Origin: Candidatus Bathyarchaeia archaeon
GTDB lineage: Archaea; Thermoproteota; Bathyarchaeia; Bathyarchaeales; DTEX01
NCBI GenBank assembly: GCA_038867895.1
Contig: JAWBXL010000005.1
Span: forward strand, 7,340 to 71,339
Direction: 5' to 3'
DNA length: 64,000 bases
Part shown: piece by piece, positions 7,850 through 45,308 of the stretch
Position numbering within the stretch: the stretch's first letter is position 1
How the letters are laid out: each line of letters opens with the position of its first letter
Notes under the pieces: model-generated
The model's input: only the letters and a program-made list of their open reading frames with translations
What the model was told of the DNA's origin: nothing
The model's database searches: none
Translations under genes and position numbers: made by a program

Positions 7850-9937
7850 TTATTGCCTCGCCTTTTGAAGGGCTAATTTAACTATCTCCGAGATATCCAT
7901 TATAATAAGATTATTTTCTAAGCCTTCAGTCTTAACAGCTTCTTCAAGCATAATCAGACATGATGGACAGGCTACAGCCAATATCCCTGCACCAGCATTG
8001 TAGGCCTCCTTAACCCTCATCCTATCAGGATTATATTCGCTATCAAGTAGCAGACCACAACCAAAACCAACATAGCAGTTTCCGCTTCCACCACCACAGC
8101 AGAGAGAGTTTTCCTTATTCCGCTCCAATTCGATGAGATGGATGCCCGGAATGGATCTCAGAATGTTTCTTGGAGCCTCATACTCGCCATTCCATCTGCC
8201 TAGGAAGCATGGATCATGATATGCTATTACCTCGTTGATCTTAGCATCAGCATCAAATTTTATCTTCCCATTCTCAATAAGGTGCCAGAGGAATTGTGTA
8301 TAATGCTCAACATCGAATTTACCGCCGAAATCGCCGTAAAAGTTTCTTATAACGTTATAGGAGTGAGGAGACAAAGTAATAATTTTCTTTACATCAAGGG
8401 CTTCAAAAATCTCTATATTTCGTCTAGCCATCTCTTCAAAGAGGCCGGTCTCGCCGATTTCATAGGCTTCGCTTCCTGAGCAGTTCTCTTTTTCGCCTAA
8501 AATGCCATATGAAATGCCAGATAAAAGTAAGATTTCAGCTAAGCTTTTAGCTGCCGCCTGCGCCCTCGGATGAAATGAGCCCATGTCACCTACATAGAAA
8601 AGGATTTCTATATTATTCTTAAATCGTGGAATATTATTTCCAGCCCATTCAGACCTTTTTGCGCGGGGTAATCCGAAGGGATTTCCATATTTATAAATGT
8701 TCTCCAGCATTTCTCCAACTTTTGAGGGCACTATTCCTCTCTCAATGCTTTTAGATCTTAATCTTCTCGATATTCCAGCGCTGTCCACTTTAACTGGACA
8801 TAGCTCCTTACAAGCGTTACAGAATAAACAGAACCAAGAAATTGTCTCAGCGATCTCCGGCTTCTCAGTTATCGCCGTCCATCCAACGCCCATCGGTCCA
8901 CCATAAACCTTTCCACCCCATATGTTACCACAGATACTCCATATTGGGCATGAGACTTGGCATCTCCCGCATTTAATGCAACGAAGCTGTTCCATTAAAA
9001 TTGGATCTTTAGAGGCTCTGATTCTTCCACCATCATAGAGTATTACATGAACCTCTCTAGCACCATGCACGCCATAAACCCTATGATATTCTATATCAGC
9101 AGTACTACTCACTCCTGAAATCACGTTTACATATGTTGGTGGATAGAGCCCAGCATAACCAGATTGAACCGTCACCTGTAAAAATGCGTCTCTAAAAGTT
9201 GGCACAATCTTCTCAACGCCCGCAACCACTATATAGATGGGCGGTAAAGTAACTATATTGTTTATATTACCCTCATTATGAACGAGGAAAATAGATCCTG
9301 TATCCGCGGCTATAGCATTTGCGCCGCTAATCCCAACATCAGCCTTGATAAACTTCTCTTTTAAGAAGTCTCTTAGGGTGGAAACAAGCTCCTCATGGGA
9401 TGCATCCCCACTAACAGTTAACCCCAAGCAAGGTTCAAGTAAACCAGCTATGTATTCTCTGCTTAGATGAAGCGCCGGGACTATAACGTGCATTGGCTTC
9501 CCTCTAGACATTTGTATTAAAAATTCACCTATGTCCGTCTCGTAAACCTCGTGACCCTTCTCAATAAGATGCTCACGTAGCATTATTTCCTCGGTTACCA
9601 TTGATTTAGCCTTCACGATTATCTTCTTTTTCTCACCAATAATTCTGTCAATTATCTCTAATGCCGAACTGCTGTTCTCAGCAAAATACGCATGCGCACC
9701 AGTAGATTTTATACTTTTAATCGTCTTATCAACATAGTATTCAAGATCTCCTAAAACCTTCTCTCTAACAGATTTTATATATTCAGCTGCCTCCATTAGC
9801 ATAGAATGATTTTTCAAGATATTATTTATAGAACGGAGAAAATTGTTTATGGATCTTCTTAGACCGATCTGGAGGGCAGCATCCTTCTGTGCTTTAGCCA
9901 TTTCGCCAGCAAGTTCCTCGATGTTCATTAATACCAC
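7850..9937 (-). CDS. LUD-domain/4Fe-4S protein fused to CCG domains (LutB/LldF + LutA/LldE-like lactate/hydroxyacid oxidation subunit)
   Basis: KAKSMVTEEI, ETDIGE, NEGN, GVHGAREVHV; CxxCxxCxxxCP twice; CCG-type YHDPC, CCGGG and ACPSC. Confidence 0.85.
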   Translation of the reverse strand: MVLMNIEELAGEMAKAQKDAALQIGLRRSINNFLRSINNILKNHSMLMEAAEYIKSVREKVLGDLEYYVDKTIKSIKSTGAHAYFAENSSSALEIIDRIIGEKKKIIVKAKSMVTEEIMLREHLIEKGHEVYETDIGEFLIQMSRGKPMHVIVPALHLSREYIAGLLEPCLGLTVSGDASHEELVSTLRDFLKEKFIKADVGISGANAIAADTGSIFLVHNEGNINNIVTLPPIYIVVAGVEKIVPTFRDAFLQVTVQSGYAGLYPPTYVNVISGVSSTADIEYHRVYGVHGAREVHVILYDGGRIRASKDPILMEQLRCIKCGRCQVSCPIWSICGNIWGGKVYGGPMGVGWTAITEKPEIAETISWFCLFCNACKELCPVKVDSAGISRRLRSKSIERGIVPSKVGEMLENIYKYGNPFGLPRAKRSEWAGNNIPRFKNNIEILFYVGDMGSFHPRAQAAAKSLAEILLLSGISYGILGEKENCSGSEAYEIGETGLFEEMARRNIEIFEALDVKKIITLSPHSYNVIRNFYGDFGGKFDVEHYTQFLWHLIENGKIKFDADAKINEVIAYHDPCFLGRWNGEYEAPRNILRSIPGIHLIELERNKENSLCCGGGSGNCYVGFGCGLLLDSEYNPDRMRVKEAYNAGAGILAVACPSCLIMLEEAVKTEGLENNLIIMDISEIVKLALQKARQ

Positions 9938-9968
9938 ACCAACTAGTGCATCATTATTTCAAGGTGGT

Positions 9969-11108
9969 TCATGCTGTCTCTTTAAGCACCTTAACCTTAA
10001 ATTCTACTCCAAATTTTTCTCCTTCATCTTTTATTTCCTTGAGAATATTCTTGTGAATTGGTATCCCTATCCTTTTTCTCGTCTCCATTGTTAGCCAAGC
10101 CTTCTCCCCAGGTATCCATATCTCAGCATCCTCCGAAATTTTCCTTAAGCCCTTAATATACTCCTTATATTTCTCGATCCTTTCTAAGAAGGCGTCCAGA
10201 AATGATATTTTATCTACATCTATCACTATCATGAAGTGCCCGACGTTCGCCCGCTCCTTATCAGTTGTATGCTTAACAAACACGCCGTAATTGGCTCCAG
10301 TTAATACACCGCAGAGCACATCAACGACAAGGGCTAAGCCCGCGCCTTTGTGCCCACTAAATTCCTCACCAAGCCCACCTAATGGCAACAGTGAACATTT
10401 CCTAGCTAAAACTTCCTTCGGGTCTTCTACAATTTTTCCCTCAGGAGAAAGAGCCCAGCCAGGCGGTATTTTCTTGTCCTCCTTCGCGTAGACCTCTATC
10501 TTCCCAATTGGGACAACACTTGTGGCGGCATCAAAAAGCACTGGAGGTGGATTCTTTGTTGGAAACCCGACGGCTATTGGATTCGTGCCTATGTTTCTGC
10601 CAACTGTATGCGTGTAGGATACTAGTGCCTCAGAATTCGTCATCACCATGCCAATCATATTTCTTTTAACAGCTTGCAGGGCATAGTAACCAGCTATGCC
10701 AAAGTGGTGGCTATTTCTGATACCAACGGCTGAAACGCCTATTTTTTTAGCCTTCTCAATAGCCATTTCCATGGCATTATACGCAACAACCTGTCCTAAT
10801 CCGGATCCACCGTCGATCAATGCTGTTGAAGCTGTTTCCTTTACAACATTCACTTCGGTTTTTGGGTTTACTGAGCCAACCTGGATGCCAACAGTATACC
10901 TCCTAAGTCTTTGGACGCCATGACTCTCAATCCCCATGAGATCCGCAGTCACAAGAACATCTGCAACGATCCCCGCGTGCTCCCTCGGGACCTTCAGGGA
11001 GGAGAGAACTTCAGCGACGTAATTTTTTAGGGATGCCCATTCGACTCTAACAAACTCATCAGGTGGAATTGGAGGCGTCTTTTCATATATTCTCAACATG
11101 CCGAACAC
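9969..11108 (-). CDS. Ldh_2 family malate/L-lactate/L-sulfolactate-type dehydrogenase (ComC/AllD-like); start may be the ATG at 11099
   Basis: ADLMGIESHG, NSHHFGIAGYYA, GTNPIA, DAATS, GHKGAGL, PGE motifs. Confidence 0.9.
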   Translation of the reverse strand: MFGMLRIYEKTPPIPPDEFVRVEWASLKNYVAEVLSSLKVPREHAGIVADVLVTADLMGIESHGVQRLRRYTVGIQVGSVNPKTEVNVVKETASTALIDGGSGLGQVVAYNAMEMAIEKAKKIGVSAVGIRNSHHFGIAGYYALQAVKRNMIGMVMTNSEALVSYTHTVGRNIGTNPIAVGFPTKNPPPVLFDAATSVVPIGKIEVYAKEDKKIPPGWALSPEGKIVEDPKEVLARKCSLLPLGGLGEEFSGHKGAGLALVVDVLCGVLTGANYGVFVKHTTDKERANVGHFMIVIDVDKISFLDAFLERIEKYKEYIKGLRKISEDAEIWIPGEKAWLTMETRKRIGIPIHKNILKEIKDEGEKFGVEFKVKVLKETA

Positions 11109-11162
11109 CGAATCATTTTTGATACCTTTTGATATTCTTGTCTAAAATATAAAGCTTTTGTT

Positions 11163-11185
11163 TTTTCGTAGAATTGTTACGAAAA
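11163..11185. promoter_or_regulatory. Perfect 8-7-8 palindrome TTTTCGTA-N7-TACGAAAA, candidate transcription-factor operator
   Basis: Lies in the divergent Ldh_2/SDR intergenic region, just upstream of the minus-strand BRE/TATA (CTTTATATTTT, ~11145-11155). Confidence 0.45.
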
Positions 11186-11373
11186 CCGTATTCAATAAAA
11201 CTTAAGAGCGTTCGATACTCTCTATATTTCTTTAAGAAAATTTATAGCTTAATAATCTTATAGTTTTAATCAAAGCGCGTAGTTCTCTTCAAAATAACAT
11301 ATAAGTTAAATAACAAAGCAAAAGTTAAATAAACTCTTTTTCTCTATTAATTTAAAATTATAATATAATCTAG

Positions 11374-12246
11374 GTGAAAAATATGATGAGGTTAAAGGAT
11401 CAAGTTGCCATTATAACTGGTTCTTCACGTGGAATAGGTAGAGCTGCTGCAATACTTTTCGCGCAGGAGGGGGCGGACGTAGTCGTAAACTATGTTAAAG
11501 ATGCGGACGCCGCTCAGAAGGTTGTTGAAAAGATAAAAGAAATGGGTAGAAGAGCAATTGCTGTTCAAGCAGATGTTGGAAATTTAAAGGACCATGAAAA
11601 ATTGGTAAATGCTGCCCTAAATGAGTTCGGGAGAATAGATATATTGTACCATAATGCTGCCATTCACTATATTTGTAAAACTCTTGATGATGTAACAGAA
11701 GATGTCTGGGATTGGACTTATAATGTTATTGTTAAGGGGCCCTTCTTTCTCACAAAGCGCGTAGTTCCCCATATGTTAAAGCAGGGAAGAGGCAATATCC
11801 TCTTTACTTTAACTGGCGGAATCTATAGTGTGCGGCCATCAGATTGGCATTACCTTAGTGCAAAAGCAGCTGTAGCGATGCTCGTTAGGGTTCTCGCGGG
11901 AACCCTTGCGCCTGAAATAAGAGTGAATGCCGTAATGCCAGGAACTGTTATGACGGATATGTTTAGACATCACCCGCCGGAATCCTGGGAGGCCTTAGCA
12001 AAGTCTGCACCTATGGGGAGAATGGCAACCCCAATGGATGTTGCTAGGGCAGCATTATGGCTTGTATCGCCTGAGGCAGAATATATCACAGGTTGCGTTA
12101 TTCCAGTTGATGGAGGAATGACTGCGTGCGCATCAAAAGAAACTATGAAACAGATACTCGAAAGATTATTGCCTGGCTTATCACTATATGATTCTAAGAT
12201 GTACGCACGTTGGCTTAAGGAGATAACTGCGGGACTAGAATTTTAA
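11374..12246 (+). CDS. Classical short-chain dehydrogenase/reductase (SDR)
   Basis: TGSSRGIG, HNAA, YLSAK (YxxxK), IRVNAVMPG, VDGG. Confidence 0.93.
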   Translation: MKNMMRLKDQVAIITGSSRGIGRAAAILFAQEGADVVVNYVKDADAAQKVVEKIKEMGRRAIAVQADVGNLKDHEKLVNAALNEFGRIDILYHNAAIHYICKTLDDVTEDVWDWTYNVIVKGPFFLTKRVVPHMLKQGRGNILFTLTGGIYSVRPSDWHYLSAKAAVAMLVRVLAGTLAPEIRVNAVMPGTVMTDMFRHHPPESWEALAKSAPMGRMATPMDVARAALWLVSPEAEYITGCVIPVDGGMTACASKETMKQILERLLPGLSLYDSKMYARWLKEITAGLEF

Positions 12247-12264
12247 TCAATATAAAAACAGCCT

Positions 12265-13545
12265 TTAAGTTTCTATCACCTCTATATTTAATCTCCTACA
12301 GAAAATCTTTAATTTTTCTCGAAGATCCCCTAATGCCATAACATAATGATTGCCCATAGCGTACTCTATAAATTTCTTTGGATCGCCATTTAATCTTAAA
12401 ATCACCTTAACCTGTTCCTCTATATCGCAATCCTCTATTTTTCCGAAAGATAAATGTAATCTATTAGCCTTCTTTCCCAAAAGTCTTACCAGAGTAGCTG
12501 GTTCCCCTTTTGGGATTTTAGGTCTACATTCTGCTAGAGTAGGTGGTCTATCCCCTATTTCCTTCTGGGTTTTCCCAGAAATTACAACTTCTCCACCTTT
12601 GGCTAATGAGCTTGCCGCTGCACAATGAGCTAATGTTAAAAGGTTACCCTCTAACGAGTAAATATCTGTAATCCAAGCTGAAAAACCACTTAAATACTTG
12701 AGGAATAAGGCAGATAAAAGTGATAAAACGTCACATTCACAGCCTATCGCATAAGAATCTTCTACAAAGCCAAGACATGGATTTATCTGAAGCTCCGCTT
12801 CAATATCTGGATGGCAGCCTATCGCAATCGCATCAAGGTTATATCTATTTAAAATCTCCTTTATTGCTTTATGAACAATTATCCCTTTAGTCAATGAATT
12901 TTTATCTGTTTTTAGGATAACCTTTTCTTGCGAAATCTGCTTCATATCTATCTCTTCACACCTAAGAGACCCCAAAATATTAGTGAATTCGAAGCGTGAA
13001 AGTTGCCTTAATTTAACACCAAACCTCTTTTCGATGGCTTCGATATCGTAGAGGGAAGCTAACATATAATGTGGCAAATTCCCTAATATGCCAATACGGG
13101 CCATTGAAAGTCTATGGATGGCAAAAGCTACCCTCGCTAAAACCGCAATTTTCCCAACAATATCTTTGTCTCCAGGTCTCCCATGCAGCAGCGTTGCCCA
13201 AAATCCTCTTTCTATTAAAGCGCCATAGGCGCTAGCAGAGGTGGGAAAAGAGAAACGCCAAGGTAATGACCAGATTACAATTGGTAATTTTAAGTAATCT
13301 GCCACAGCCACCTGCAAGTGAGCAGTTGCTCCATGAAGACACAGTAAAAGTGCAAGGTCATAATCCTCTTTATTGATAACATCTCCTAATTGATATACTT
13401 GCAATTCATTTACAACAGGGCTAAGTCTTTTTATCTTTACATCTAATCCTTCAAAGGCATTTTCAACAGAATCTATATCGCGTTTAAAACTCTCATCGAC
13501 AACTCTGCCTATTGGCACCAACAAAATACTTGGACGATCACTCAA
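12265..13545 (-). CDS. L-fucose/L-arabinose isomerase-like protein
   Basis: CECD metal motif, LAHC, C-terminal GNHY; length and organisation fit the FucI/AraA-related family. Confidence 0.7.
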   Translation of the reverse strand: MSDRPSILLVPIGRVVDESFKRDIDSVENAFEGLDVKIKRLSPVVNELQVYQLGDVINKEDYDLALLLCLHGATAHLQVAVADYLKLPIVIWSLPWRFSFPTSASAYGALIERGFWATLLHGRPGDKDIVGKIAVLARVAFAIHRLSMARIGILGNLPHYMLASLYDIEAIEKRFGVKLRQLSRFEFTNILGSLRCEEIDMKQISQEKVILKTDKNSLTKGIIVHKAIKEILNRYNLDAIAIGCHPDIEAELQINPCLGFVEDSYAIGCECDVLSLLSALFLKYLSGFSAWITDIYSLEGNLLTLAHCAAASSLAKGGEVVISGKTQKEIGDRPPTLAECRPKIPKGEPATLVRLLGKKANRLHLSFGKIEDCDIEEQVKVILRLNGDPKKFIEYAMGNHYVMALGDLREKLKIFCRRLNIEVIET

Positions 13546-13671
13546 TGGCCTCTTGCCTCCAATTAGATGATCACTCGATCATAATTTTCATATCAGGCGT
13601 AAATTATTCTGAAAAGAATATTCTCACCAAGTTAGATAATAAAACAATAATTATGGAAAAAACGGGTGGAT

Positions 13672-16278
13672 TCATTTCCCTAAGAGGAATTTCGGTATCT
13701 CCTCAGGCTTCGCTTTATATACTCTGCAGAGTAAAGCTCTGCAATACCATGCTCCCGTTTTTTCGTCTAGGGTCGAAGGATCATCTTCTGTTAAGACATT
13801 TGCATTAGATATTAAAGCTCCTCCAAGCCACGGTTCTTCGGTCGGAAGCTCTGGATACCACCATGAGGCTCCTATATTTACTACTTGCGGGTGAATATGT
13901 GGTCCTACTCTAGCCCTCTGCAATATTCTACCTCGGCGTGTTTCAATCCAAACCCAGTCACCATCCACTATACCAAGTTTCCTAGCGGTCTCATAATGTA
14001 TGTCACAGCGTGGCCAAGGATTCTGTTCTCTGAAACCCATACCCCACTGCCTGTATTCGGAGTGAAACATCGGCCGGAATCTTCCACCAGTAGTAAGTAT
14101 GAGAGGATACTCCTTAGCTAATTCGGGAGTTCTCACAGGACTCTCAAAGGGCTCCTCATGTTCAGGAAGAGGATCGTATCCTAAATCTTCCAGTATCGAA
14201 CTCCATATCTCTGCTCTCCTACTTGGAGTAGTGAATCCTCGTGGTTTACCAGTTTTTGGATCAATTAAAGCCCATGGTTTATCCTCCTCTGGGAGATAAC
14301 CCGGGGTGTTTGAGGTAAGCAATCCCATGCGAATAGCATCCTCAAATTTTATTCCAGCTCGGCTCAGTCTATATTCTATTGCCTCTTTATTGTTCTTCCA
14401 TGGGAAATACTCTCCAAAACCAAGGCGTATGGCAAGCCCACGGAAGAGCTCATAATCGCTGTGACGATCTCCCATAGGTTTAACTGCATTTTCTCCTACA
14501 ACAACAGCTTCTTGGTAATCCTCCCAATTGCAACAGTACGGAACTTCTAGACCCTTCGCTGCGGCTGGCAAAACGTAATCTGCAAGGGCTGCAGTAGGCG
14601 TCATAAAGTAGTCTTGAACAACACATAGCTCTAAGTTGGAACTCTTTAAGGCTTTGATCACTAACTTAGTATTTGGTGCCCACATGATAGGGTTTCCGCT
14701 CCATATAATGAGCGCTTTTATCGGATATGGTTTTCCAGTGAGTATTGCCCGCCAGATAAGTGGCATGGATACTGTTAATGTGTGCCCACCAGAGTTTTGA
14801 GGAATCCCCCATACTTTCTGGTAATATTTATTGTATAAGTCAAAGGCTGCCCATGACATTACCTTATATTGATCCATACCTATTTGCTTAAGTTTTGTTT
14901 CGGGTTTTATAAACTCTTGCCCCTCGAGCTCAGACTCTCTTACCACAAGTTTACCATTAATAACTGGCCCCGGACGGGCTCTAAGAAGAGGCCAAATGCC
15001 GCCTTTCACACCATAATTCCCTGTTATTAAGTGGATTATAACCATAGCTATATGATTATCTGAGGCGTTTTTTCCAGCTTGGTAAAGAGATACTCCGGCC
15101 CCTATACCGCCAGGCCTTCTAGTCCAGAACATTCTCGCAGTTTCAATTATTTTTTCAGCTGGTATCCATGTTATTTCTTCAACATACTCAGGCGTATATT
15201 TGCTTACGCGCTCCCACAGCATATCCCAAACAGTTTTGCATTCTACTTCTTTACCATCAACTAATTTAACCTTAAATGTTCCAGAAAGAGATGGTTTGGC
15301 GTCTTGTGGCTGAAATATCATTTCCTCAGAAATCCATATGGCCGGAGCATTACGCATAGTATCCCATACTACAAAGTTTTCACGCGAACCTCCTTGTCTT
15401 ATATCGCTCTCCCTTAATAGTTTTCTGACATCTGTACGAACTAAAAATGGCGCATTAGTCCAGTTCAGCACAAAATCCTTATCAAAAAGTCCCTCCTTCA
15501 TTAAAATATGGATCCAGCCTAAAAATAAAGCACAATCAGTGCCCGGTCTTATTTGTAACCACATGTCACAACATCTGGCAGTTTCTGTTAGTCTAGGATC
15601 AACGCACACCGCGTAAATATTTTCCCTATTAAGCGTAAAAGCGGCCCAAAGCGGTGGAAATGCTTCTTTTATATCCGTCCCAACAAGAACAACATATCTA
15701 GTTTCACTGCTCATTTCCGGCCATTCACGTGAAAAGGCACCAGCCATGCACTGTTCAACAGCTGTTCCTGGGTGGTGACATATTGTGCTTGGGTCACCAA
15801 GGTTAAGGGGATTACCAAACAAATACGCAAAGCGAGAACGGGCCCAGAACGTATCTGAACGCATGGTCCCTTCAATGAAGGCAACACATTCAGGACCATA
15901 TTTATCCCTCAGCTCCTTTAGTTTCTCCGCTATTTCATCTAAAGCTTGCTCATAGGATATGCGTTGCCACTTTCCCTCGCCTCTTTCGCCTACCCTCTTA
16001 AGAGCATACATTAACTGATCTGGATGATAAAGCCATCTTGCCGGGAAATCAGGAATTGTCGCCCGATCATAGCATACAAACTTTTCTTGTGAAAAAGGAT
16101 CTGGATAGACAACCCAAAGCTTCGAAATAGGATGTTCTGGGTTTCCTTCCACCTTTACTATTTTCCCGGTCTTCTTGTCTATGTAGGCAAGAAGCCCACA
16201 GCCCGCGAAGCATCCTCCGGCACCATTGTTACATATAATTCGCTTAACTTCAAGTTCCTCACTCATAAGTATCCCCAT
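13672..16278 (-). CDS. Mo/W-bisPGD oxidoreductase, Cys-ligated (acetylene hydratase/catechol dehydroxylase-like branch), cytoplasmic
   Basis: N-terminal C-x6-C-x3-C...C Fe-S motif, RGEGKWQRIS, STICHH (putative Mo-Cys), IRPGTDCA, FMTPTAALADYVLPAA, FHSE C-terminal domain; no Tat RR signal. Confidence 0.88.
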   Translation of the reverse strand: MGILMSEELEVKRIICNNGAGGCFAGCGLLAYIDKKTGKIVKVEGNPEHPISKLWVVYPDPFSQEKFVCYDRATIPDFPARWLYHPDQLMYALKRVGERGEGKWQRISYEQALDEIAEKLKELRDKYGPECVAFIEGTMRSDTFWARSRFAYLFGNPLNLGDPSTICHHPGTAVEQCMAGAFSREWPEMSSETRYVVLVGTDIKEAFPPLWAAFTLNRENIYAVCVDPRLTETARCCDMWLQIRPGTDCALFLGWIHILMKEGLFDKDFVLNWTNAPFLVRTDVRKLLRESDIRQGGSRENFVVWDTMRNAPAIWISEEMIFQPQDAKPSLSGTFKVKLVDGKEVECKTVWDMLWERVSKYTPEYVEEITWIPAEKIIETARMFWTRRPGGIGAGVSLYQAGKNASDNHIAMVIIHLITGNYGVKGGIWPLLRARPGPVINGKLVVRESELEGQEFIKPETKLKQIGMDQYKVMSWAAFDLYNKYYQKVWGIPQNSGGHTLTVSMPLIWRAILTGKPYPIKALIIWSGNPIMWAPNTKLVIKALKSSNLELCVVQDYFMTPTAALADYVLPAAAKGLEVPYCCNWEDYQEAVVVGENAVKPMGDRHSDYELFRGLAIRLGFGEYFPWKNNKEAIEYRLSRAGIKFEDAIRMGLLTSNTPGYLPEEDKPWALIDPKTGKPRGFTTPSRRAEIWSSILEDLGYDPLPEHEEPFESPVRTPELAKEYPLILTTGGRFRPMFHSEYRQWGMGFREQNPWPRCDIHYETARKLGIVDGDWVWIETRRGRILQRARVGPHIHPQVVNIGASWWYPELPTEEPWLGGALISNANVLTEDDPSTLDEKTGAWYCRALLCRVYKAKPEEIPKFLLGK

Positions 16279-16370
16279 TTTTACAATTAAAGATTTTTTT
16301 ATATGCCTTTTTCTATTTAAAACTTTCTAATAATTCCATCGTTGTTCTTTGGATGTGAAACTCTTATTAT

Positions 16371-17216
16371 TTAGAGGGTGATGTCACCCAGGTTCACGTC
16401 CCTTTCAGTTGTTATTATACCAATAACTTTTTTCTTGTAGCCTTCCTTCTCTATTTCAAGCAGGTATTTATGCCTCCATTCTAGATTTTTAAGCCAGAAG
16501 TCTCCAAACTCGTCGGTGTACACTTCATATTTTCTGCCAGTATACAAGTCTATCGCTGTAACTTTAGCGTTTTCAATAACCTCTTTCTTCGCCGAGTTTA
16601 TTATGGTGCCCGCTATAAATGGCTTTGGCAAATTCAGATAATATACTCGAGGTTTTGTTCCATATTCTGGGTGGAGCACCTCAGTCTTTTCTAGGAGCAC
16701 CTTTAGTTCTTCTTCATCCCCAAAGATTATAGCATTTCTTTGGCATGCATCTACACATCTTGGGACACCACGCTTATAAAGTGGGTCAGCGCCATCTAAA
16801 AGATGAGCGCAAAACGTGCATTTCTGTGCTATGCCAAGCTTCTCGTTAAAGTAGATTGCTCCATATGGACAAGAATCATAACATAATGGTTTATCAACGT
16901 CTCTGCATCCATTACATCTATCCGGCCTTATTAATACTATTCCGTCAGATCTCTTCACTATTGCTCCGATTCTACACGCCCTGATGCAGGGCGGATTATC
17001 GCAGTGCATGCAATTCATGGGTATGTAGGTGACCTTTACTTTTGGAATAGTTCCCCGCTCCACTTCCTTAACCCATCTCCATGCAGCCCCTAAATCTGGT
17101 TGTGGCTTAGCGTACGGAGACCAGTCGTTATCTACATGCTCATCCTTACAAGCAATTTGACAAACATAACAGCCTACGCATTCAGCAACGTTAATAATCA
17201 TAACTTTCTTTCCCAT
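16371..17216 (-). CDS. 4Fe-4S dicluster protein with C-terminal beta-sandwich, pyrogallol transhydroxylase beta subunit (BthL)-like
   Basis: Four Cys groups; CKDEH...W...ERG, AQKCTFCAHLLD, GTKPRVYY, TDEFGDF and LGDITL match the recalled BthL architecture. Confidence 0.85.
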   Translation of the reverse strand: MGKKVMIINVAECVGCYVCQIACKDEHVDNDWSPYAKPQPDLGAAWRWVKEVERGTIPKVKVTYIPMNCMHCDNPPCIRACRIGAIVKRSDGIVLIRPDRCNGCRDVDKPLCYDSCPYGAIYFNEKLGIAQKCTFCAHLLDGADPLYKRGVPRCVDACQRNAIIFGDEEELKVLLEKTEVLHPEYGTKPRVYYLNLPKPFIAGTIINSAKKEVIENAKVTAIDLYTGRKYEVYTDEFGDFWLKNLEWRHKYLLEIEKEGYKKKVIGIITTERDVNLGDITL

Positions 17217-17218
17217 AT

Positions 17219-35869: not shown

Positions 35870-36070
35870 ACCTTTAACCTCTCAAATATTTAAAGCACAA
35901 AAAAGTTTAAAATATTTATGCTTTAAACTTATTACGTTTTACCAAGATGATTAAAATTTAACGCTTTATATTTTTGGAACCTATATTAGAAAATAAGATA
36001 AGAAATGTTATGAAAAATCTATATATGATAAAGAACGTATCTGAAATTTATTGTAGGGTGAATCGAAATT

Positions 36071-37934: not shown

Positions 37935-39356
37935 TTGATTAAAGGCAAAAATAGGGCAGTTAATGACTTAAGAGACGCTATTGCTCTAGCCGAAGAGAAT
38001 AACGAGCTTGTTAGAATAAAAAAGCCAGTTAATGTTGAACTCGAACTCGCTGGTGAATATTTAAAATATGCTGGCGGAGTTCCAATCCCACCACCAACAA
38101 AAATCGGACCAGTAGTACTTTTCGAAAACGTATTTCGCCTCATCAACTCACAAAAGATCCAGTACAAAATACCTGTTATAGCTGGTGTTTTAGGAAGCCG
38201 GGAGAGGGTTGCACAGTATCTGGGCGTAAACAGAGAGAATCTTTCTTTAAAGATGCTGGAAGCTATAGAGAATCCTATGCCTCTGAGATATGTTAGCGAT
38301 GCACCCTGTCAGGAAGTCGTGATTGACAAAAATATTAATTTGTTAGAGCAGTTACCTATACCAGTTTTATCGTATGATTGCGCTGGCCCCAGCATCACGA
38401 TGGGTCTAATGCGGGCATTAGATCCAGAAACCGGACATGGAGATGTAACCTTCCATAGAATAATTGTTGTCGGCCCAGACACGTTAACCGCATTTATGAG
38501 CCCAATAAGGCATATAAAACAAATGCAATTGAAGGCTGAAAAGAAAAATAAGCCTTTTCCCGTCTCAATAAATATTGGTCTTGATCCATTTACCGCGATA
38601 TCTGCTGGTCTTTCCCCTCCAACCGGAACAGACATTGATGAGCTGACCGTGGCAGGAGCTTTAAAAGGATCACCTATAGAGGTTGTAAAGTGCAAAACAA
38701 TTGATTGCGAAGCTATCGCTAACGCGGAAATAGTGATTGAAGCGGAAGTGCAGCCAAATGTAATGCTGATGGAAGATTTAATTACGAAAAAGGGATGGAC
38801 AATACCCGAAATGGCTGGATATATGGGGAGAGCAGTCCCAGCGCAAGTTCTTAAAGTTAAAGCAATAACTCACAGGGAGGATGCTATATATCAGACATTA
38901 ATTAATCCGGGCGAGGAACACAACATTATTGCGGGAATCCCGGGTGAAGCTGAGATTACAAATGCTATTTGGAGGGCAGGTTATAAGGATCTTCTCAAAA
39001 ATATATATCTCCCACCAGCGGGCGGAGGGAAATTGATGTGTGTTATACAAGTGAAAAAGAGGGATAGTGGGGATGATATGGAAGTCAGGAATATTGCTAT
39101 GATCGCGCTTGCAACAAGACTTGAAATCCGCTGCGCAATCATAGTTGATGAGGATGTGGAGATATATGATCCAATGGATTTATGGTGGGCTTTAACAACA
39201 AGATTTAACGCAAAAGAAGGTCTCGTAATCTTAGATCAAATTAAATCATGGCCTGGTTTAGCTGAATATGTACGCGATAATAAAATGATCCTCGACTGCA
39301 CTCTTCCATGGAGTGAAAAAGAAAAATATTTTAGACCACGTTTCAAGCGAGGATAA
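37935..39356 (+). CDS. UbiD family prFMN-dependent decarboxylase, AroY/LpdC (protocatechuate/gallate decarboxylase)-like clade
   Basis: DVTFHR, INIGLDP, PEMAGY, GEEH..AGIP.EA, PAGGGKL, IIVDEDV and TTRF closely follow recalled AroY/LpdC signature segments. Confidence 0.88.
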   Translation: MIKGKNRAVNDLRDAIALAEENNELVRIKKPVNVELELAGEYLKYAGGVPIPPPTKIGPVVLFENVFRLINSQKIQYKIPVIAGVLGSRERVAQYLGVNRENLSLKMLEAIENPMPLRYVSDAPCQEVVIDKNINLLEQLPIPVLSYDCAGPSITMGLMRALDPETGHGDVTFHRIIVVGPDTLTAFMSPIRHIKQMQLKAEKKNKPFPVSINIGLDPFTAISAGLSPPTGTDIDELTVAGALKGSPIEVVKCKTIDCEAIANAEIVIEAEVQPNVMLMEDLITKKGWTIPEMAGYMGRAVPAQVLKVKAITHREDAIYQTLINPGEEHNIIAGIPGEAEITNAIWRAGYKDLLKNIYLPPAGGGKLMCVIQVKKRDSGDDMEVRNIAMIALATRLEIRCAIIVDEDVEIYDPMDLWWALTTRFNAKEGLVILDQIKSWPGLAEYVRDNKMILDCTLPWSEKEKYFRPRFKRG

Positions 39357-39766: not shown

Positions 39767-40510
39767 ATGGAGAAGTGGAGAATTGTCGATTATGAATTTA
39801 GTGATCCTTTCTTAAACTTGGCGGTTGAGGAAGCTATTTTATTAGCAGTTGATAAAGGTCTCTCACCAAGCACTATACGTTTCTGGAGAAATGACAGGTC
39901 AGTAATTATTGGTCGTTCTCAAGACATATTTAAGGAAGTTAACATTGACTCATGCACTAAATACGATATAAGGATTGTGAGGAGATTTACTGGTGGAGGA
40001 GCTGTTTATAATGATTATGGAAATCTGAATTGGTCCATTATCATAGATAAATCTAGCACTTTATATCCTAAGGGCATCTTTGAATTGTATGAAAAAGCTT
40101 GCAGGGCTGTGGTTGAAGGCTTAATGCATTTAGGTGTTAAGGCGGAATTTAGACCACCAAACTCAATATGGGTTGAGGGCAAAAAAATTTCTGGGCTAGC
40201 TGCCTATATTAAAAAAAATTCAGTGCTATGTCACGGTACGCTTCTCATAAACGCTGACCTGCTAATTCTTTCAGAGGTTCTGTCCAATATACTCCACCCA
40301 GTAACTAATATTGAGAAATATTTGAGGGTGGATAATCCCCTATCACATGTTAAAAAGTCTATTCTCTATGGTTTTAGAAGATTATATAAAATAGACTTTT
40401 ACCATGATAAACTAACAAGCTATGAAAAAGAGACGGCTAGACAGCTATATACAAACAAGTTTACTAAAGATATCTGGAATCTTAGAGGAATCTTTCCACA
40501 CGATTCATAG
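39767..40510 (+). CDS. lplA: Lipoate-protein ligase A (catalytic domain)
   Basis: NLAVEEA, RFWRN...IGRSQ, VRRFTGGGAVY, KKISG, HGTLL. Confidence 0.9.
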   Translation: MEKWRIVDYEFSDPFLNLAVEEAILLAVDKGLSPSTIRFWRNDRSVIIGRSQDIFKEVNIDSCTKYDIRIVRRFTGGGAVYNDYGNLNWSIIIDKSSTLYPKGIFELYEKACRAVVEGLMHLGVKAEFRPPNSIWVEGKKISGLAAYIKKNSVLCHGTLLINADLLILSEVLSNILHPVTNIEKYLRVDNPLSHVKKSILYGFRRLYKIDFYHDKLTSYEKETARQLYTNKFTKDIWNLRGIFPHDS

Positions 40511-40599: not shown

Positions 40600-41913
40600 C
40601 TAGGGGTAATCAAATATTATTGCACCGTATTCAAACGTTTTCGTTAAAACCTCTGGGCCAGTCTCCCTCACTACCACCACGTTTTTGAGCCTTCCGCCAC
40701 CTATCCCCGGTATAAAGAGGTTTGGATGAAATCTGAAAGTCATGTTTCTTTCAATTTTTATCGGTTTATCTAAGGAGAGACCGGAAATATTCGGTGGCTC
40801 GTGTGATAATGTTCCTATTCCATCAGCTCCCCATCCAAGAGATGGTGGAATCGGGCTTATACCAGGTATAAATGGGATGTCTGGCACCTCTCGTATATAC
40901 TTTTTATATCCATATTCCTCCAGTACTTTTTCACCAGCTAAGAAGACATCGGCTGTTGTAACGCCAGGTCTTAGCACTTTAAGCGCTGCCTGCGTAGAAT
41001 CATAAAGAGCCTTGTAGATCTCCCTTTGCTGTTCCGTAGGCTTGCCAACAGTTCCAAATAAGGATATTGTCGAGCAATAACCGAGGAATTGCGCACCTAT
41101 ATCAAAATACCACGGATCACCATACTGAAGCTTCCGATCTGTTGTGAGTCTAAAATATGGTGCAACATTCGGCCCAGAGAGAACCTGGGGGGACCATGTT
41201 AGCCAGTCTACGTTTTCTTTATAATAATAATGAGCTATCGCAGCAGCCACCTCACATTCTTTAACACCTTCATTAAGCATATTTAGCGCAACTGCAGCCG
41301 CATTATTTGTAATGGCTGTTGACATCCTGATTAGTTTAATTTCTTCTTCACATTTTGAAGCTCTCCTCAGACGGAGCGCTTGATCATCAACGACCTCAAA
41401 GCTTGGCAACTTGTTTTTCAATTCCATACCAAGAGCATAGGGCATTACATCCACCGCTATTCTACCACTTCGAACGCCCTCTTTCTCAAAAATTCCTGTT
41501 AAATGTTTAAAGAAGTGTACGAGGGCCTCTGGCCGGATGAACATTCCACCTATAGGAGCTCTAAGTGGACGAATATGGTCTTTTGGTATCCAGTCAATTC
41601 TCTCCTCAATCCATAAGTAGTCGCCTGACCATGGAAATAAGTATGGATCACCATTTTGGAATAAGAGAGATGCGATTGCTGTCTCTATAGCTCCAAGTTC
41701 ATAAAACATAAAGTAATCTGTCACATAACGTATATTTCCAGGAAGGCAACATAGATATGCGTCGATGCCATAATCCTTCATAGCCTTCTGAAGAGTTTCC
41801 ACGCGATATTTCCTTAATTTATAAAAATCAATAGTCGCTACTTCATGAATATAGGACATTATTTTTCTCACCGGCTGATTAATTTTTATATACTTCCTTA
41901 AAACTCTTTCCAT
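40600..41913 (-). CDS. M24 (pita-bread fold) Xaa-Pro peptidase/creatinase-like protein with degenerate metal ligands
   Basis: Creatinase_N-like NIRYVTD, K..EEI, FDIG...GYCS, HEPP; most canonical metal ligands are replaced. Confidence 0.8.
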   Translation of the reverse strand: MERVLRKYIKINQPVRKIMSYIHEVATIDFYKLRKYRVETLQKAMKDYGIDAYLCCLPGNIRYVTDYFMFYELGAIETAIASLLFQNGDPYLFPWSGDYLWIEERIDWIPKDHIRPLRAPIGGMFIRPEALVHFFKHLTGIFEKEGVRSGRIAVDVMPYALGMELKNKLPSFEVVDDQALRLRRASKCEEEIKLIRMSTAITNNAAAVALNMLNEGVKECEVAAAIAHYYYKENVDWLTWSPQVLSGPNVAPYFRLTTDRKLQYGDPWYFDIGAQFLGYCSTISLFGTVGKPTEQQREIYKALYDSTQAALKVLRPGVTTADVFLAGEKVLEEYGYKKYIREVPDIPFIPGISPIPPSLGWGADGIGTLSHEPPNISGLSLDKPIKIERNMTFRFHPNLFIPGIGGGRLKNVVVVRETGPEVLTKTFEYGAIIFDYP

Positions 41914-41983: not shown

Positions 41984-42733
41984 CTATTGCGTGGCTCGTT
42001 TGAAAAAGTCTAAGACAACTGGTATGAAAATATCTTCGCGTACACTTCTAATGTTATGTCCCGTGCTAGGCATAATTAGCAGCTCACCTTTTGGAAGAGA
42101 TCTATAAAATCGCACAGCCTCTTCTACTGGAATCAAACCATCGCGATCACCTACAGAAACTAAAACTGGAAAGTCTGCTCGTTTAATATATTCCTCGCTC
42201 AAAGTTTTTGACCCCTTATTTTGCATGAAGGAAGCTGCTTCTTTAAGGAGGTTTCTCCAACGTTTTCCATGAAGTTTCTGAAGTGTTTCTGCAAATTTTG
42301 GATCCTCGCTTACTATTCTGTCAGGATCCATTTTGTCAATTATGGATCGAACCGCGTTTTCATCCCAGTAAATTTTTGAGGCGTGCATTACGAGGGCCTT
42401 GACTCTGCCGGGATGCCTAATGCCAGCCATTAAGCCCACAAATCCGCCTAAACTATAACCGCACACAAGAACAGATTCTAGATGTAATGCATCAAGAATC
42501 TTGATGAAGTCGTCTACGAAAAGTTTGTCTGATAATCTCCCATCGGGATTATCTGTTAGACCATGACCGCGCATATCTACAGCGATTACGCGATATTCTC
42601 TAGAAAAGAATGGAATAAATCTCCTCCAATCGCTTTCAATTGATCCTAATAAACCATGTAAAAGAATTAGGGGTTTGCCTTCCCCACTCTCCTCTAGATG
42701 GAAAGTAGTGTTATCTATCCGTATGCTTAACAT
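41984..42733 (-). CDS. Alpha/beta hydrolase (enol-lactonase/esterase-like)
   Basis: LLHG, DMRGHG, GYSLGG nucleophile, GDRD acid, TGH His. Confidence 0.92.
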   Translation of the reverse strand: MLSIRIDNTTFHLEESGEGKPLILLHGLLGSIESDWRRFIPFFSREYRVIAVDMRGHGLTDNPDGRLSDKLFVDDFIKILDALHLESVLVCGYSLGGFVGLMAGIRHPGRVKALVMHASKIYWDENAVRSIIDKMDPDRIVSEDPKFAETLQKLHGKRWRNLLKEAASFMQNKGSKTLSEEYIKRADFPVLVSVGDRDGLIPVEEAVRFYRSLPKGELLIMPSTGHNIRSVREDIFIPVVLDFFKRATQ

Positions 42734-42967: not shown

Positions 42968-44895
42968 ATGGCGATAACAAATTGTTCTGTTGAGTGGCCT
43001 TACTTAGTAGATTACGAGAAGATAAACAATGTTGAAACAGATGTACTAATTATTGGGGGTGGCATAGCTGGTTCCTGGGCGGCTATAACCGCCGCGAGGA
43101 GAGGTGTAAAAGTTGCTGTTGTCGATGAAATGGATGTTTTTTCCGCTGGTCCTGCTGGTTGCGACCACTGGAACTTTGCTTTCGATAATCCAGCTTGCAA
43201 GGTTAAGCCCGATGAAGCAATTGAGATTTTAGAGCGTATTACTGGGGGGCGTGTCACAGGAATTGCTCGCTATGTAACCTTTAACGAGTCATTTCAGACT
43301 CTTTTGGAGCTTGAGAGACTCGGCGCAAAAATTAGGGATACGGAGGACGAGTTTAAGGGGGCACCATTTAGAGACGAGGAAACCAAGCTGCTATATGCTT
43401 ATGATTATGACATAAAAAGCAGCATAAGGGTCTGGGGGCAAACATTCAGACAAGCGCTTTATGAAGAGCTTGTAAGGCTACGAATCTCGCTGTATAATCG
43501 AATTTTAACTACAAGTTTACTTACTGAGAAGGGGAAAATTGGAGCACGTGTGGTGGGAGCGACGGGTGTCAACGTGCGAACTGGTGAATTCTATGTCTTT
43601 AATGCAAAGGCTATAGTGCTATGTACGGGGGGTATTGATGGTGCTTGTAGGATTTGGGGCTATTGGGGTTATTGTTTTAATTCATTAGCCTCTCCCTCGC
43701 AAGTTGGTATAGGTCATGCAATGGCCTTTAATGCAGGCGCTGAATTAGCCCTACTAGATTCTTTTGGAGTAGGTCTAAGGTCTCATGGTGAGATGCCATC
43801 ATATGCTACTGGCAATCCCGGTAATACATGGTATCCATGCACAATAGTTGACGCTAAAGGAAGGGAAATACCATGGATCGACAAGTACGCGAAAAAACTC
43901 TTAAGTCATTAGAGGAACGCGTTCGCTCAAGCTTGCGTGGCTATAAAGCTGCTACGGGTGTACCTACATGGCCAGCGGAACTGTTCCCAAAACCAATAGC
44001 CTATTATCCTTCCTCTAGAGAAGCACAAGATGATTTCTTCGAGCGCACGAAAAGGGGAGAGTATAAACTACCGCTTTATGCTGATCTGCCAGGCATGCCT
44101 GAGCATGAGAGAAGGGTCATTTTTGGTTTAATGGTAGCGCAGGAGGGAAAAACGTGGATCTTATACAGGAATCTAACGCAAGCAGGATTTGACCCAGATA
44201 AGGATATGCTTCAGAGCTACTGGTTCGGTGCTTCACCACCGTTGCGCTCAGCCCTGGACCCGCTAGAACACATATATTTTCAGGGAGGGGGCGGAATTGT
44301 GTATAACTGGGATTTCAAAACAAGCCTTGAGGGATTATATGTTGCCGGAGACGCATGCATATACAGTTCGGAACACTCTGGAGCCGCTGTTACCGGACGC
44401 TGGGCTGGAGCTAAAGCCGCTGATTATGCGAGAGGAACATCTTTTGGAGAAGTTATCTGGGATCAAGTTGAGAGGGAGAAACAGCGTGTTTATGCTCCAA
44501 CAAAAAGAACTAAAGGTATAAACTGGAAAGAGCTTAACGTCGCCATATGTAAGGTTATGCGCACATACGTTAACGATCTGACCAATGAAGAAATGTTGAA
44601 AATAGCCTTAAAGTGGCTTGAGGAGCTGGAGCAAGGCGAGGCCCAAAAGCTTGTTGCAAGAAACCCGCATGAGCTGGCAAGATCATTAGAAACACTTGGT
44701 GTTTTAACAAACGCAAAATTAATAGTGCTATATACATTAGAAAAAATGCGTAGGGGTAGAGTAGAAGGGATGTTAACGATGAGATTGAAGGAGGATGGCG
44801 GAACCGAATTTAGGGATCTCCCGCCCAGATGGTGGCTCCTTCTACCATATGCCCCTACATATAGGGAGAATTATGAGAAGCATAAACCATGGTGA
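42968..44895 (+). pseudogene. AprA/SdhA-like FAD flavoprotein split by a -1 frameshift (ORFs 42968-43912 and 43873-44895)
   Basis: The first half has DVLIIGGGIAG, GCDHW and AKAIVLCTGG; the second half has TSLEGLYVAGD and ARNPHEL. The frame changes at an A6 run (43892-43897). Sequencing error is not excluded. Confidence 0.75.
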
Positions 44896-45308
44896 TAAGT
44901 ATGAGCGAGATAAAGAAATATTACGCGCCAGTAGAGGTAAGCTCCATAATAGAATTTGATCCAAGCATATGTGATGGATGCTACCCAGCTTTCCGTGAGC
45001 CGCTTTGCGTTAAGGCCTGCAGGATGGATATTCTCATACCGAATCCAAATGATAGGAGCAAGCCGCCAATACTTATTTATCCGGACGAATGTTGCGAGTG
45101 CGGTTGCTGCGTCCATGCCTGTCCGAAGTCTCTACAGGGGGCAATAAAAATGAACTGGCCAACACATAAGCTGCCTAGATGGAAGAGAAAAGAGACTGGC
45201 GAGCACTTCCGTGTTGGAATGCCAAATCCACCGCCACCAAACCCAAGGCCACCAGTCGGAGGATGGTACCCGGAAGTAAAAAGGAAGAAAGAAGAAAAAA
45301 TTTCTTAA
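44889..45308 (+). CDS. AprB-like 2x[4Fe-4S] ferredoxin subunit with extended C-terminal tail
   Basis: CDGC...CVKAC..D and YPDECCECGCCVHACP; WKRKETGE tail; overlaps the flavoprotein stop. Confidence 0.8.
   Translation: MVISMSEIKKYYAPVEVSSIIEFDPSICDGCYPAFREPLCVKACRMDILIPNPNDRSKPPILIYPDECCECGCCVHACPKSLQGAIKMNWPTHKLPRWKRKETGEHFRVGMPNPPPPNPRPPVGGWYPEVKRKKEEKIS

Follow-up and report, generated by a model that had tools for sequence, protein, structure and literature searches.

What becomes of the hydroxylated aromatic rings that are left when Bathyarchaeia remove methyl groups from lignin-derived compounds? These organisms are among the most abundant archaea in anoxic sediments. An overview of the group, in its accessible text, describes lignin use through O-demethylation of methoxylated aromatics. 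Here we describe a gene block that bears on the fate of the remaining hydroxylated rings, at positions 7,850 to 45,308 of a 64,000-nucleotide stretch of DNA (the window; C5:7340-71339, contig JAWBXL010000005.1) from a Candidatus Bathyarchaeia archaeon. The 1.71-Mb genome (G000) is held in 81 contigs and is 94.4% complete. Genes were called from a listing of open reading frames (ORFs) and assigned to families by Pfam, NCBIfam and PDB-sequence searches; L-numbers denote the loci compared. On balance we lean towards reading the conserved part of this block as an accessory module that a Bathyarchaeia genome from hot springs would use for the catabolism of hydroxylated aromatic acids or phenols. 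A first-pass annotation had taken the whole block for one island of gallate and polyphenol catabolism; the gene families it named are all real ORFs where it placed them, and these searches confirm their assignments.

A conserved core within the block

As judged by comparison with a same-genus sister species (G002, rated 100% complete), the 37.5-kb block combines twelve conserved core genes with neighbours that are particular to this genome. Making up the core are a five-gene Liv-type importer, a UbiD-type decarboxylase, a protein with a sugar-isomerase fold, a short-chain dehydrogenase/reductase (SDR), an acetylene-hydratase-like (AH-like) molybdenum/tungsten (Mo/W) enzyme, a PgtL/BthL-like pair of a second Mo enzyme, and an M24-fold protein. 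A tblastn search with all window proteins placed all twelve within 16.8 kb of G002 (C3:113565-130398) at 60-95% protein identity, in an order that differs from that of the window: binding protein, UbiD, isomerase-fold protein, SDR, AH-like enzyme, permeases, ATPases, PgtL-like, BthL-like and M24-fold protein. In the window, the same genes are scattered over positions 11374-41913 and interleaved with others. Because the twelve are still linked in the sister species despite this rearrangement, their clustering exceeds chance, and the conserved linkage supports a functional link among the importer, UbiD, both Mo enzymes and the SDR. The genomic context differs too, with no match to leucyl- or alanyl-tRNA synthetase (LeuRS, AlaRS) around the G002 cluster, whose contig ends 1.2 kb past the core.

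Missing from the G002 cluster by the same tblastn search are the LUD/Fe-S/CCG fusion, Ldh_2, the dehydrogenase components E1 and E2, SucC, SucD, CocE, the VOC protein, a 305-residue Fe-S protein, alcohol dehydrogenase (ADH), the VAO-type flavoprotein, LplA, the alpha/beta hydrolase and a split flavoprotein; no E1 homologue occurs anywhere in G002. The island is composite because these peripheral genes are absent from the sister cluster. Of the single island proposed at first, the twelve co-conserved genes stand as a unit, and E1-E2, SucCD, CocE, VOC, ADH, VAO and the alpha/beta hydrolase fall outside it. These neighbours are lineage-specific and may extend the pathway in this genome.

Further records hold parts of the core. 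The metagenome locus L019 shows the G002 arrangement until it breaks off inside the PgtL-like gene; BthL and M24 lie past that point. A third Bathyarchaeia record (L012) has an AH-like fragment, the isomerase-fold gene, the SDR (87%) and the M24-fold gene (76%), with a CocE-type paralog (41%) beside core genes and LUD-like and VAO-like genes as well. A 69% UbiD match (P0136) is listed on a contig of equal size to that of L012 (41,349 bases). In L020 the isomerase-fold gene is kept beside the SDR (83%). Within the studied genome, contig C33 carries a paralogous module of M24/Creatinase_N, AH-like, metallo-beta-lactamase (MBL)-fold, Liv ABC, binding-protein and PgtL-like genes. The window itself is well supported: DNA contigs from three other studies span 30 of 30 bins of positions 11000-30999, with 0-1 differences per listed piece, and bridge gene junctions, so the gene arrangement is no assembly artefact. 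Reading its sequence, we found an N-terminal hydrophobic anchor on the importer's binding protein, the gene of which adjoins the UbiD gene in G002.

The decarboxylase and the molybdenum enzymes

The core UbiD finds its nearest solved structure in AroY protocatechuate decarboxylase (5o3m, E 3.4e-93), ahead of HmfF (2.8e-65) and UbiD proper (3.2e-32). Its His-Arg and Glu-x-x-Gly-Tyr stretches align with AroY, at about 40% identity as judged by eye, and it scores 253 bits against the NCBIfam VdcC model, below the cut-off of 650. Of 329 relatives at E<=1e-30, the best 120 comprise a small archaeal set (59-71% identity), bacterial proteins (38-44%) and HmfF (34%); some of the bacterial ones carry the automatic names gallate decarboxylase subunit C (JGI; 39-43% identity) or 3,4-dihydroxybenzoate decarboxylase. 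A tree of 110 rows (108 of the 120 hits, each at least 430 residues long, plus the window protein and housekeeping UbiD; 12 shorter hits were dropped) groups the window protein with archaeal sequences in a long-stemmed clade of 12 rows (100% SH-aLRT). This clade and three long-branch rows form the sister group (92) of an 89-row bacterial clade that holds the rows automatically named gallate or 3,4-dihydroxybenzoate decarboxylase, and all 104 rows are split (100% SH-aLRT) from HmfF and housekeeping UbiD. The PDB ranking and the tree both appear to place the protein with the AroY/LpdC branch, as the first-pass annotation had it, and there it forms a separate deep archaeal clade. With AroY, LpdC and VdcC it shares the three-domain UbiD fold, the aligned motif stretches and AroY as nearest structure; it differs from them in the VdcC score, in its separate clade and in having no adjacent gene for a B or D subunit. 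Neither a UbiX-type B gene nor a small D gene lies beside it, and no small plus-strand ORF flanks it. The one UbiX-type gene in the genome (PF02441) is on contig C52, away from UbiD, and may serve the housekeeping UbiD.

The distribution of this decarboxylase is narrow. Orthologs occur in 3 of 401 genomes of a phylum sample. Among 61 relatives including G000, an intact AroY-like UbiD is present in G002 besides the studied genome, and a housekeeping UbiD (~30% identity) in 55 of the 61. A decayed fragment in G016 (L016, G016:C20, 8754-9441) spans residues 117-347, is broken into three frame pieces (83-94% identical) and has none of the core genes around it; because only this remnant is kept there, the pattern points to gene loss within the genus. 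In another family of the phylum, G207 (L027, G207:C2, 7554-10926) has a 69% ortholog beside a major facilitator superfamily (MFS) transporter and housekeeping genes, with no other core gene nearby. The G207 pair resembles a minimal decarboxylase-plus-transporter unit.

The PgtL-like protein aligns over residues 25-823 with the large subunit of pyrogallol hydroxytransferase (4v4c_A). Its next PDB match is trimethylamine N-oxide (TMAO) reductase (4.6e-65), and TMAO and dimethyl sulfoxide (DMSO) reductases lie near 1e-65. The BthL-like gene follows 2 bp downstream, and the match of its product to 4v4c_B takes in a C-terminal CarboxypepD_reg-type beta-barrel domain, which is not present in ordinary four-cluster subunits. 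At the N-terminus of the large subunit there is no Molybdop_Fe4S4 Pfam match and no Cys motif. Residues H147, D179, S180, W181 and Y409 face H144, D174, S175, W176 and Y404 of the 4v4c chain, of which His144, Asp174 and Tyr404 are reportedly catalytic (Messerschmidt 2004). The substrate pocket, reportedly formed by Arg153, Trp354 and Tyr560, is another matter: T156 faces R153, P358 faces W354, and a five-residue loop with Y560 is missing. Across nine sequences (eight genome paralogs and the G002 ortholog), H, D, S and W are invariant in 9/9 and Y is kept in 7/9; the R153 position reads T, M, E, P, L, M, R, K, T, with paralog C4b the one that keeps Arg. Because the former residues are invariant and the R153 position is variable, the chemistry is probably kept and the pocket different. 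The eight paralogs thereby offer a natural series for substrate specificity in PgtL/RhL enzymes.

The Pelobacter acidigallici enzyme (4v4c) resembles the window pair in having two subunits, a Ser metal ligand, a large subunit with no N-terminal Fe-S domain, a small subunit with ferredoxin-type cluster motifs and a C-terminal beta-barrel, and a cytoplasmic location. The window pair differs from it in lacking R153, W354 and the Y560 loop, in being one of eight paralogs and in its archaeal, hot-spring origin. The family is large (>6000 proteins at E<=1e-20), and the 119 non-self relatives listed are 53-73% identical, none of them named as the Pelobacter enzyme; the named ones among the matches listed belong to Bathyarchaeia, Nitrososphaerota, Conexivisphaera calida and alpha- or betaproteobacteria. 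The accessible literature counts PgtL and RhL as the two known ring-hydroxylating members of the Ser-ligand group.

The first-pass annotation proposed a gallate or tannin route: import, de-esterification by CocE or the alpha/beta hydrolase, decarboxylation to pyrogallol, conversion to phloroglucinol by AthL/BthL, reduction by the SDR, hydrolytic ring opening, and acyl-CoA and ATP through E1-E2 and SucCD. PgtL/BthL and AroY are indeed the best PDB matches, the catalytic His, Asp, Ser and Tyr are aligned, bacterial UbiD relatives (39-43%) bear the gallate decarboxylase name, the SDR belongs to the core, and the order of enzymes fits the published bacterial route as far as its accessible description goes. 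Nevertheless, we regard the route as unlikely. The three pocket features are not kept in the window copy (C4b has the Arg instead), which, as one of eight paralogs, has no special claim to pyrogallol. The SDR is a generic one, and the steps from gallate through pyrogallol to phloroglucinol are not borne out. Neither are E1-E2 and SucCD as the ATP-yielding part: like CocE they are not co-conserved, G002 has no E1, and SucCD is by its NCBIfam cut-offs an ordinary succinate-CoA ligase. The route also leaves no place for the AH-like, isomerase-fold and M24-fold core proteins.

Ring opening is a further difficulty for a gallate route. By Pfam, the window contains no member of the cyclase (DPGC), BKACE (TAL) or 3-hydroxyacyl-CoA-dehydrogenase families, and BKACE was not found in the genome. 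Two cyclase-family genes (PF04199) lie outside the window contig, on C4 and C75. The accessible part of a 2023 mBio report describes the PGR-DPGC-TfD-TAL phloroglucinol cluster of Clostridium scatologenes and notes it in Archaeoglobus bioinformatically only. The likeness to our locus lies in an SDR beside polyphenol-type enzymes in an anaerobic setting; in place of DPGC, TAL and 3-hydroxyacyl-CoA dehydrogenase, the window holds the M24-fold and arabinose-isomerase (AraA)-fold proteins.

The E1-E2 pair lies directly upstream of the PgtL-like gene on the same strand, with a 231-bp gap. BqdLMS, a ring-cleaving enzyme, resembles pyruvate-dehydrogenase components. Because the genes adjoin, E1-E2 came into question as the Bqd-like partner that would cleave the ring for the PgtL-like pair, a candidate we rejected on the lack of E1 in G002. 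The wider comparison is with RehLS of Aromatoleum (Azoarcus) anaerobium, which acts with BtdLS and BqdLMS and, in the accessible account, is a PgtL-family two-subunit hydroxylase like ours. The RehLS pathway needs nitrate respiration, and the E1-E2 genes here are not conserved with the core. A BtdLS-type membrane dehydrogenase was not seen in the window, although no search was aimed at it.

The second Mo/W enzyme belongs to the acetylene-hydratase/catechol-dehydroxylase branch of the bis-molybdopterin guanine dinucleotide (bis-MGD) enzymes; after acetylene hydratase, its next PDB match is thiosulfate reductase (3.7e-53). The Cys metal ligand is aligned and the neighbouring Ile replaced by His. 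The N-terminal motif is C16-x6-C23-x3-C27, with Phe, not Asp, after the second Cys. We take acetylene hydratase to need an Asp beside the cluster Cys and an Ile beside the ligand Cys, the latter for its hydrophobic pocket; because both are replaced, the AH-like enzyme is, from its residues, not an acetylene hydratase. Catechol dehydroxylases were described in eLife in 2020, in the text accessible to us, as the bis-MGD clade nearest acetylene hydratase, with archaeal members noted. By PDB ranking, with no dehydroxylase sequence compared directly, the AH-like enzyme is likewise nearer acetylene hydratase than other characterised bis-MGD enzymes, which is how that report delimits the clade. Among the dehydroxylases of Eggerthella and Gordonibacter (Dadh, Cldh and relatives), as far as the same source describes them, the small type of Gordonibacter is comparable, since the AH-like enzyme likewise consists of one soluble subunit.

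Both Mo enzymes look cytoplasmic and non-respiratory: no twin-arginine motif was seen within the first 90 residues of either, and Pfam shows no homologue of a membrane anchor next to their genes. This bears on the idea that they are reductases of anaerobic respiration, for S- or N-oxides, polysulfide or similar acceptors, and that the cluster is an energy-metabolism island. Their top NCBIfam models are S/N-oxide reductases and many relatives are automatically named TMAO reductase, yet the scores fall far below cut-off (bisC_fam 327.7 versus 1017, DMSO_red_II 257.6 versus 985) and every family cut-off is missed. PDB ranking favours hydroxyl-transfer and hydratase enzymes over reductases by ~50 and ~45 orders of magnitude in E-value, and respiratory operons are not typically linked to genes for a decarboxylase, an SDR and an importer. 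We consider the respiratory role highly improbable, close to negligible.

Enzymes of both kinds are numerous in this 1.7-Mb genome, with eight PgtL-like matches (paralogs on contigs C4, C7, C33, C36, C63 and C68) and six AH-like matches (paralogs on C8, C12, C33 and C44). Among the 61 related genomes including G000, seven have PgtL-like genes, seven AH-like genes and six both, and all carriers belong to one genus; in the phylum sample, 13 of 401 genomes have a PgtL-like gene, eight of these in one other family. Contig C7 holds BthL, a PgtL-like gene and a Liv ABC system. Contig C4 (L007, G000:C4:42001-60000; L008, G000:C4:60001-76981) has two PgtL/BthL pairs, a NarJ/TorD-type chaperone, an MFS transporter, polyferredoxins and an HdrA/MvhD-like fusion. 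The cyclase-family gene, which we considered as a possible DPGC, lies about 9 kb from these pairs, together with a CoA-transferase III, an enoyl-CoA hydratase, a DUF35/thiolase pair, an aldehyde:ferredoxin oxidoreductase and a CocE-type paralog. C4 may be a second locus of phenolic degradation, with an electron outlet.

The reductase, isomerase-fold and M24-fold proteins

The SDR passes a single subfamily model, a generic glucose-1-dehydrogenase one (225 bits, cut-off 215). Its PDB matches are of FabG type, with versicolorin and tetrahydroxynaphthalene reductases in the same E range. In every record with a close (>=63%) copy of the isomerase-fold gene, the SDR gene adjoins it (G000, G002/L013/L019, L012 and L020).

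The isomerase-fold protein itself has no Pfam match, no PDB sequence match and only 13 relatives at E<=1e-5 in 5.8 billion proteins. For its AlphaFold2 (AF2) model (pLDDT 87.9, pTM 0.90), Foldseek ranks L-arabinose isomerases on top (TMq 0.73-0.80, best E 6.5e-21, 13-16% identity), followed by FucI; Atlas features score it 0.97 to AraA/FucI clusters. On this model, membership of the L-arabinose/L-fucose isomerase superfamily fold is clear. Relatives at 26-35% occur in six distinct records (L014 and L023, apparently one bacterial locus; L021, L022, L024 and L025), and near none of them is there a counterpart of the window Mo enzymes, UbiD or SDR. L022 (5327-11272) and L024 (3-5035) share one set of genes, in which a relative of 32-35% identity is accompanied by a thiamine diphosphate (ThDP) enzyme, an MBL-fold protein, a luciferase-like protein and an amino-acid-type permease; this set appears to be another uncharacterised catabolic cluster.

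Such a fold invites a reading in which the substrate is a non-aromatic hydroxy-ketone, cyclitol-like or sugar-derived, the isomerase-fold, SDR and M24-fold proteins are central, and the Mo enzymes and UbiD perform side reactions. The AraA/FucI fold is clear, its gene and the SDR are the tightest pair in the core, the SDR's one passing model is for glucose-1-dehydrogenase, and the distant relatives lie beside ThDP enzymes, presumably of the kind that cleaves alicyclic diones. Set against this are the decarboxylase, whose nearest characterised relatives all use aromatic or heteroaromatic acids, and the Mo enzymes, both branches of which act, where characterised in the accessible literature, on aromatic rings or acetylene. 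Nor does the core contain a sugar kinase, aldolase or glycosidase by Pfam. To this alternative, too, we give little credence.

The M24/creatinase-fold protein is the most constrained of the cluster, with 93-95% protein identity to G002 (90-95% in the tblastn comparison of Table 1). At the nucleotide level its gene is 84-87% identical to that of G002, nine of the other ten core genes compared are 66-74% identical, and the SDR is 80.6%. Aligned with Pyrococcus furiosus prolidase (1pv9), whose five metal ligands we take to be D209, D220, H284, E313 and E327, it keeps one of the five: D209 (D271 here) is retained, and the others become T (D220), W (H284), H (E313) and K (E327). The listed start codon probably lies 54 bases upstream of the true one, which would be at residue 19: the protein starts there in its Atlas record, and the match in G002 starts at residue 18. 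Elsewhere in the genus, 406-residue M24/creatinase-like genes (31-32% identical) lie ~3 kb from split E1 alpha/beta genes (G018:C35:5620-11321, G016:C18:18128-23694), which hints at a recurring association of the M24-fold protein with a ThDP enzyme.

Those substitutions also tell on a reading of the cluster as peptide or amino-acid catabolism, in which S15 and M24 peptidases, a branched-chain importer, a branched-chain 2-oxoacid dehydrogenase and an ADP-forming CoA ligase would work together beside unrelated Mo enzymes and UbiD. The Pfam names fit well enough (Peptidase_S15, Peptidase_M24, BPD_transp_2, BCA_ABC_TP_C, E1/E2, SucCD), and accessible accounts describe Bathyarchaeia as peptide users. 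But four of the five metal ligands are gone and an ordinary prolidase (~360 residues) is encoded separately, on contig C1. The S15 protein is of the CocE/NonD esterase type (313.7 bits, against 85.2 for Xaa-Pro dipeptidyl-peptidase), and E1 matches pyruvate-dehydrogenase E1 models best, with no branched-chain 2-oxoacid model among the matches listed. In G002, moreover, the importer is linked to UbiD and the Mo enzymes, not to S15 or E1-E2. We think a peptide pathway very unlikely.

Our preferred reading, a module for hydroxylated aromatic acids or phenols, would run as follows. The membrane-anchored Liv-type binding protein and the ABC transporter would import an aromatic acid, from which the AroY-like prenylated-FMN decarboxylase would take off the carboxyl group. 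The PgtL/BthL-like pair and the AH-like enzyme, both cytoplasmic, could then move, add or remove ring hydroxyls without oxygen. The SDR would reduce the activated ring or a keto intermediate, and the arabinose-isomerase-fold and M24-fold proteins might process the resulting hydroxy-ketone; the M24-fold protein may be a non-peptidase hydrolase in place of the known cyclase-type ring opener.

Several observations weigh against this scheme. No search result indicates a substrate. The SDR cannot be told by sequence from FabG-type reductases, and three PgtL pocket positions differ. The PgtL-like protein appears nearer to at least 119 uncharacterised proteins (53-73%) than to the Pelobacter enzyme. 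An aldose-ketose isomerase fold is unexpected in aromatic catabolism, and its distant relatives belong to clusters with ThDP, MBL, luciferase-like and permease genes and no Mo enzymes. Because its G207 ortholog stands alone beside an MFS transporter, the UbiD can work outside the module. The window lacks the known ring-opening genes (cyclase, BKACE), and a search of the 94.4%-complete genome turned up no BKACE (PF05853). The evidence for transcription is a weak hint: short contigs (305-483 bases, 1-20 differences from the window) from one RNA-library run on a sediment sample, from a close relative and perhaps contaminated with DNA. They map to the SDR/isomerase-fold junction, the AH-like gene, the AH/BthL junction, E1, CocE and the binding protein, the last with the top word depth among them (57.6), itself a weak hint. 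Coverage is partial, and the uncovered parts of the stretch carry no meaning.

A bolder and tentative extension, which we hold to be possible though rather doubtful, is that one thermophilic lineage of Bathyarchaeia degrades polyphenol rings anaerobically by a route not described before. The ring hydroxyls would be tailored by a set of at least 14 cytoplasmic Mo/W enzymes. Once the SDR had acted, two recruited proteins would take the place of the bacterial cyclase and BKACE: a ketol isomerase with the arabinose-isomerase fold and a metal-free hydrolase with the M24/creatinase fold. We know of no described aromatic pathway in which an M24-fold or AraA-fold protein takes part, and these two core proteins are candidates for new enzyme chemistry. 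By combining a decarboxylase of hydroxybenzoate type with the two known kinds of ring-modifying bis-MGD enzyme, the module offers concrete genes to test. If the reading is right, anaerobic polyphenol turnover extends to archaea and hot springs, and Bathyarchaeia would gain their first aromatic pathway that degrades the ring. That no archaeal pathway of this kind has been characterised, as the first-pass annotation stated, agrees with the literature searched, in whose accessible text the Archaeoglobus phloroglucinol cluster is bioinformatic only. A search of the main texts of accessible papers found none assigning such enzymes to Bathyarchaeia.

Neighbouring genes, borders and habitat

The features of the block are collected in Table 1. 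Among the peripheral genes, the VAO-type flavoprotein aligns through its FAD domain only, to enzymes of the p-cresol methylhydroxylase and eugenol oxidase types (E 1e-21 to 1e-12). The genome has one E3 candidate gene. A paralogous flavoprotein pair on contig C30 (72% and 69% identical) has the same split as the SdhA/AprA/TfrA-like flavoprotein; because of this, a sequencing error is an unlikely cause, and the comparison suggests a real two-gene form or a programmed frameshift.

Table 1. Features of the block, with the place of each core gene in the G002 cluster and its protein identity to the window copy.
Feature	Position in window	Strand	Evidence	Place and identity in G002
LutB-type LUD/Fe-S/CCG fusion and Ldh_2-family 2-hydroxyacid dehydrogenase	7850-11108	-	Pfam, NCBIfam	
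Classical SDR, 290 residues (core); candidate ring or keto reductase	11374-12246	+	Pfam adh_short_C2, E 4.1e-57	4; 88%
L-arabinose/L-fucose-isomerase-fold protein, 426 residues (core)	12265-13545	-	AF2 model and Foldseek	3; 72%
AH-like bis-MGD Mo/W enzyme, acetylene-hydratase/catechol-dehydroxylase branch, 868 residues (core)	13672-16278	-	PDB 2e7z, E 1.1e-98	5; 77%
BthL-like iron-sulfur subunit, 281 residues (core)	16371-17216	-	4v4c_B, E 4.9e-47 over 4-280; Fer4_11 and CarboxypepD_reg	9; 74%
PgtL/AthL-like bis-MGD catalytic subunit, 860 residues (core)	17219-19801	-	PDB 4v4c_A, E 9.4e-118	8; 73%
E2	20033-21139	-	Pfam	
Fused E1 alpha-beta, 2-oxoacid/acetoin-type dehydrogenase	21150-23168	-	Pfam; PDH E1-beta subfamily, 347 versus cut-off 321	
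SucC/SucD (succinate-CoA ligase beta, alpha)	23498-25506	+	NCBIfam equivalogs, 462 versus 370 and 434 versus 336	
Two ABC ATPases, LivG/LivF type (core)	25580-27024	+	Pfam ABC_tran and BCA_ABC_TP_C	7; 70% and 73%
CocE/NonD hydrolase	27336-29075	-	TIGR00976, 313.7 bits versus cut-off 66.3	
VOC protein	29477-30031	-	Pfam	
Liv-type (Peripla_BP_6) binding protein (core)	30137-31426	-	Pfam, E 2.8e-47	1; 68%
Two Liv-type permeases (core)	31755-33553	+	Pfam BPD_transp_2	6; 60% and 67%
Fe-S protein, 305 residues	in the 33885-37675 block, before Zn-ADH	+	Pfam	
Zn-ADH	34859-35869	-	Pfam	
VAO/PCMH-type FAD protein	36071-37675	-	Pfam, PDB search	
Prenylated-FMN-type UbiD decarboxylase, AroY-like, 473 residues (core)	37935-39356	+	Three UbiD Pfam domains	2; 70-71%
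Lipoate-protein ligase	39767-40510	+	Pfam LplA-B_cat, E 2e-50	
M24/creatinase-fold protein (core)	40600-41913	-	Pfam M24 and Creatinase_N	10; 90-95%
Alpha/beta hydrolase	41984-42733	-	Pfam	
Split SdhA/AprA/TfrA-like flavoprotein	42968-43912 and 43873-44895	+	Two frames, 40-base overlap	
Small ferredoxin	44889-45308	+	Follows split flavoprotein	
tRNA-Met	45750-45827	+	At right border of block	

The block is bordered on the left by the housekeeping genes LeuRS and AlaRS and on the right by tRNA-Met, TldD/PmbA and RFC. We considered an integrative island and rejected it: no repeat of at least 14 bases of the tRNA-Met gene occurs at the left border, and the GC content is like that of the flanks. 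Among 19 sequencing runs listed, 17 hold part of positions 11374-19801, and 15 of the 17 are labelled hot springs metagenome; these come from ten studies, one of them possibly the source of the genome. Inside the window, 7 kb from the island, lies MoaC (52143-52580, minus strand), the sole copy found in the genome, and a radical SAM gene close by (53316-54344, plus strand) could be MoaA. Genes of molybdopterin synthesis thus lie near the Mo-enzyme cluster.

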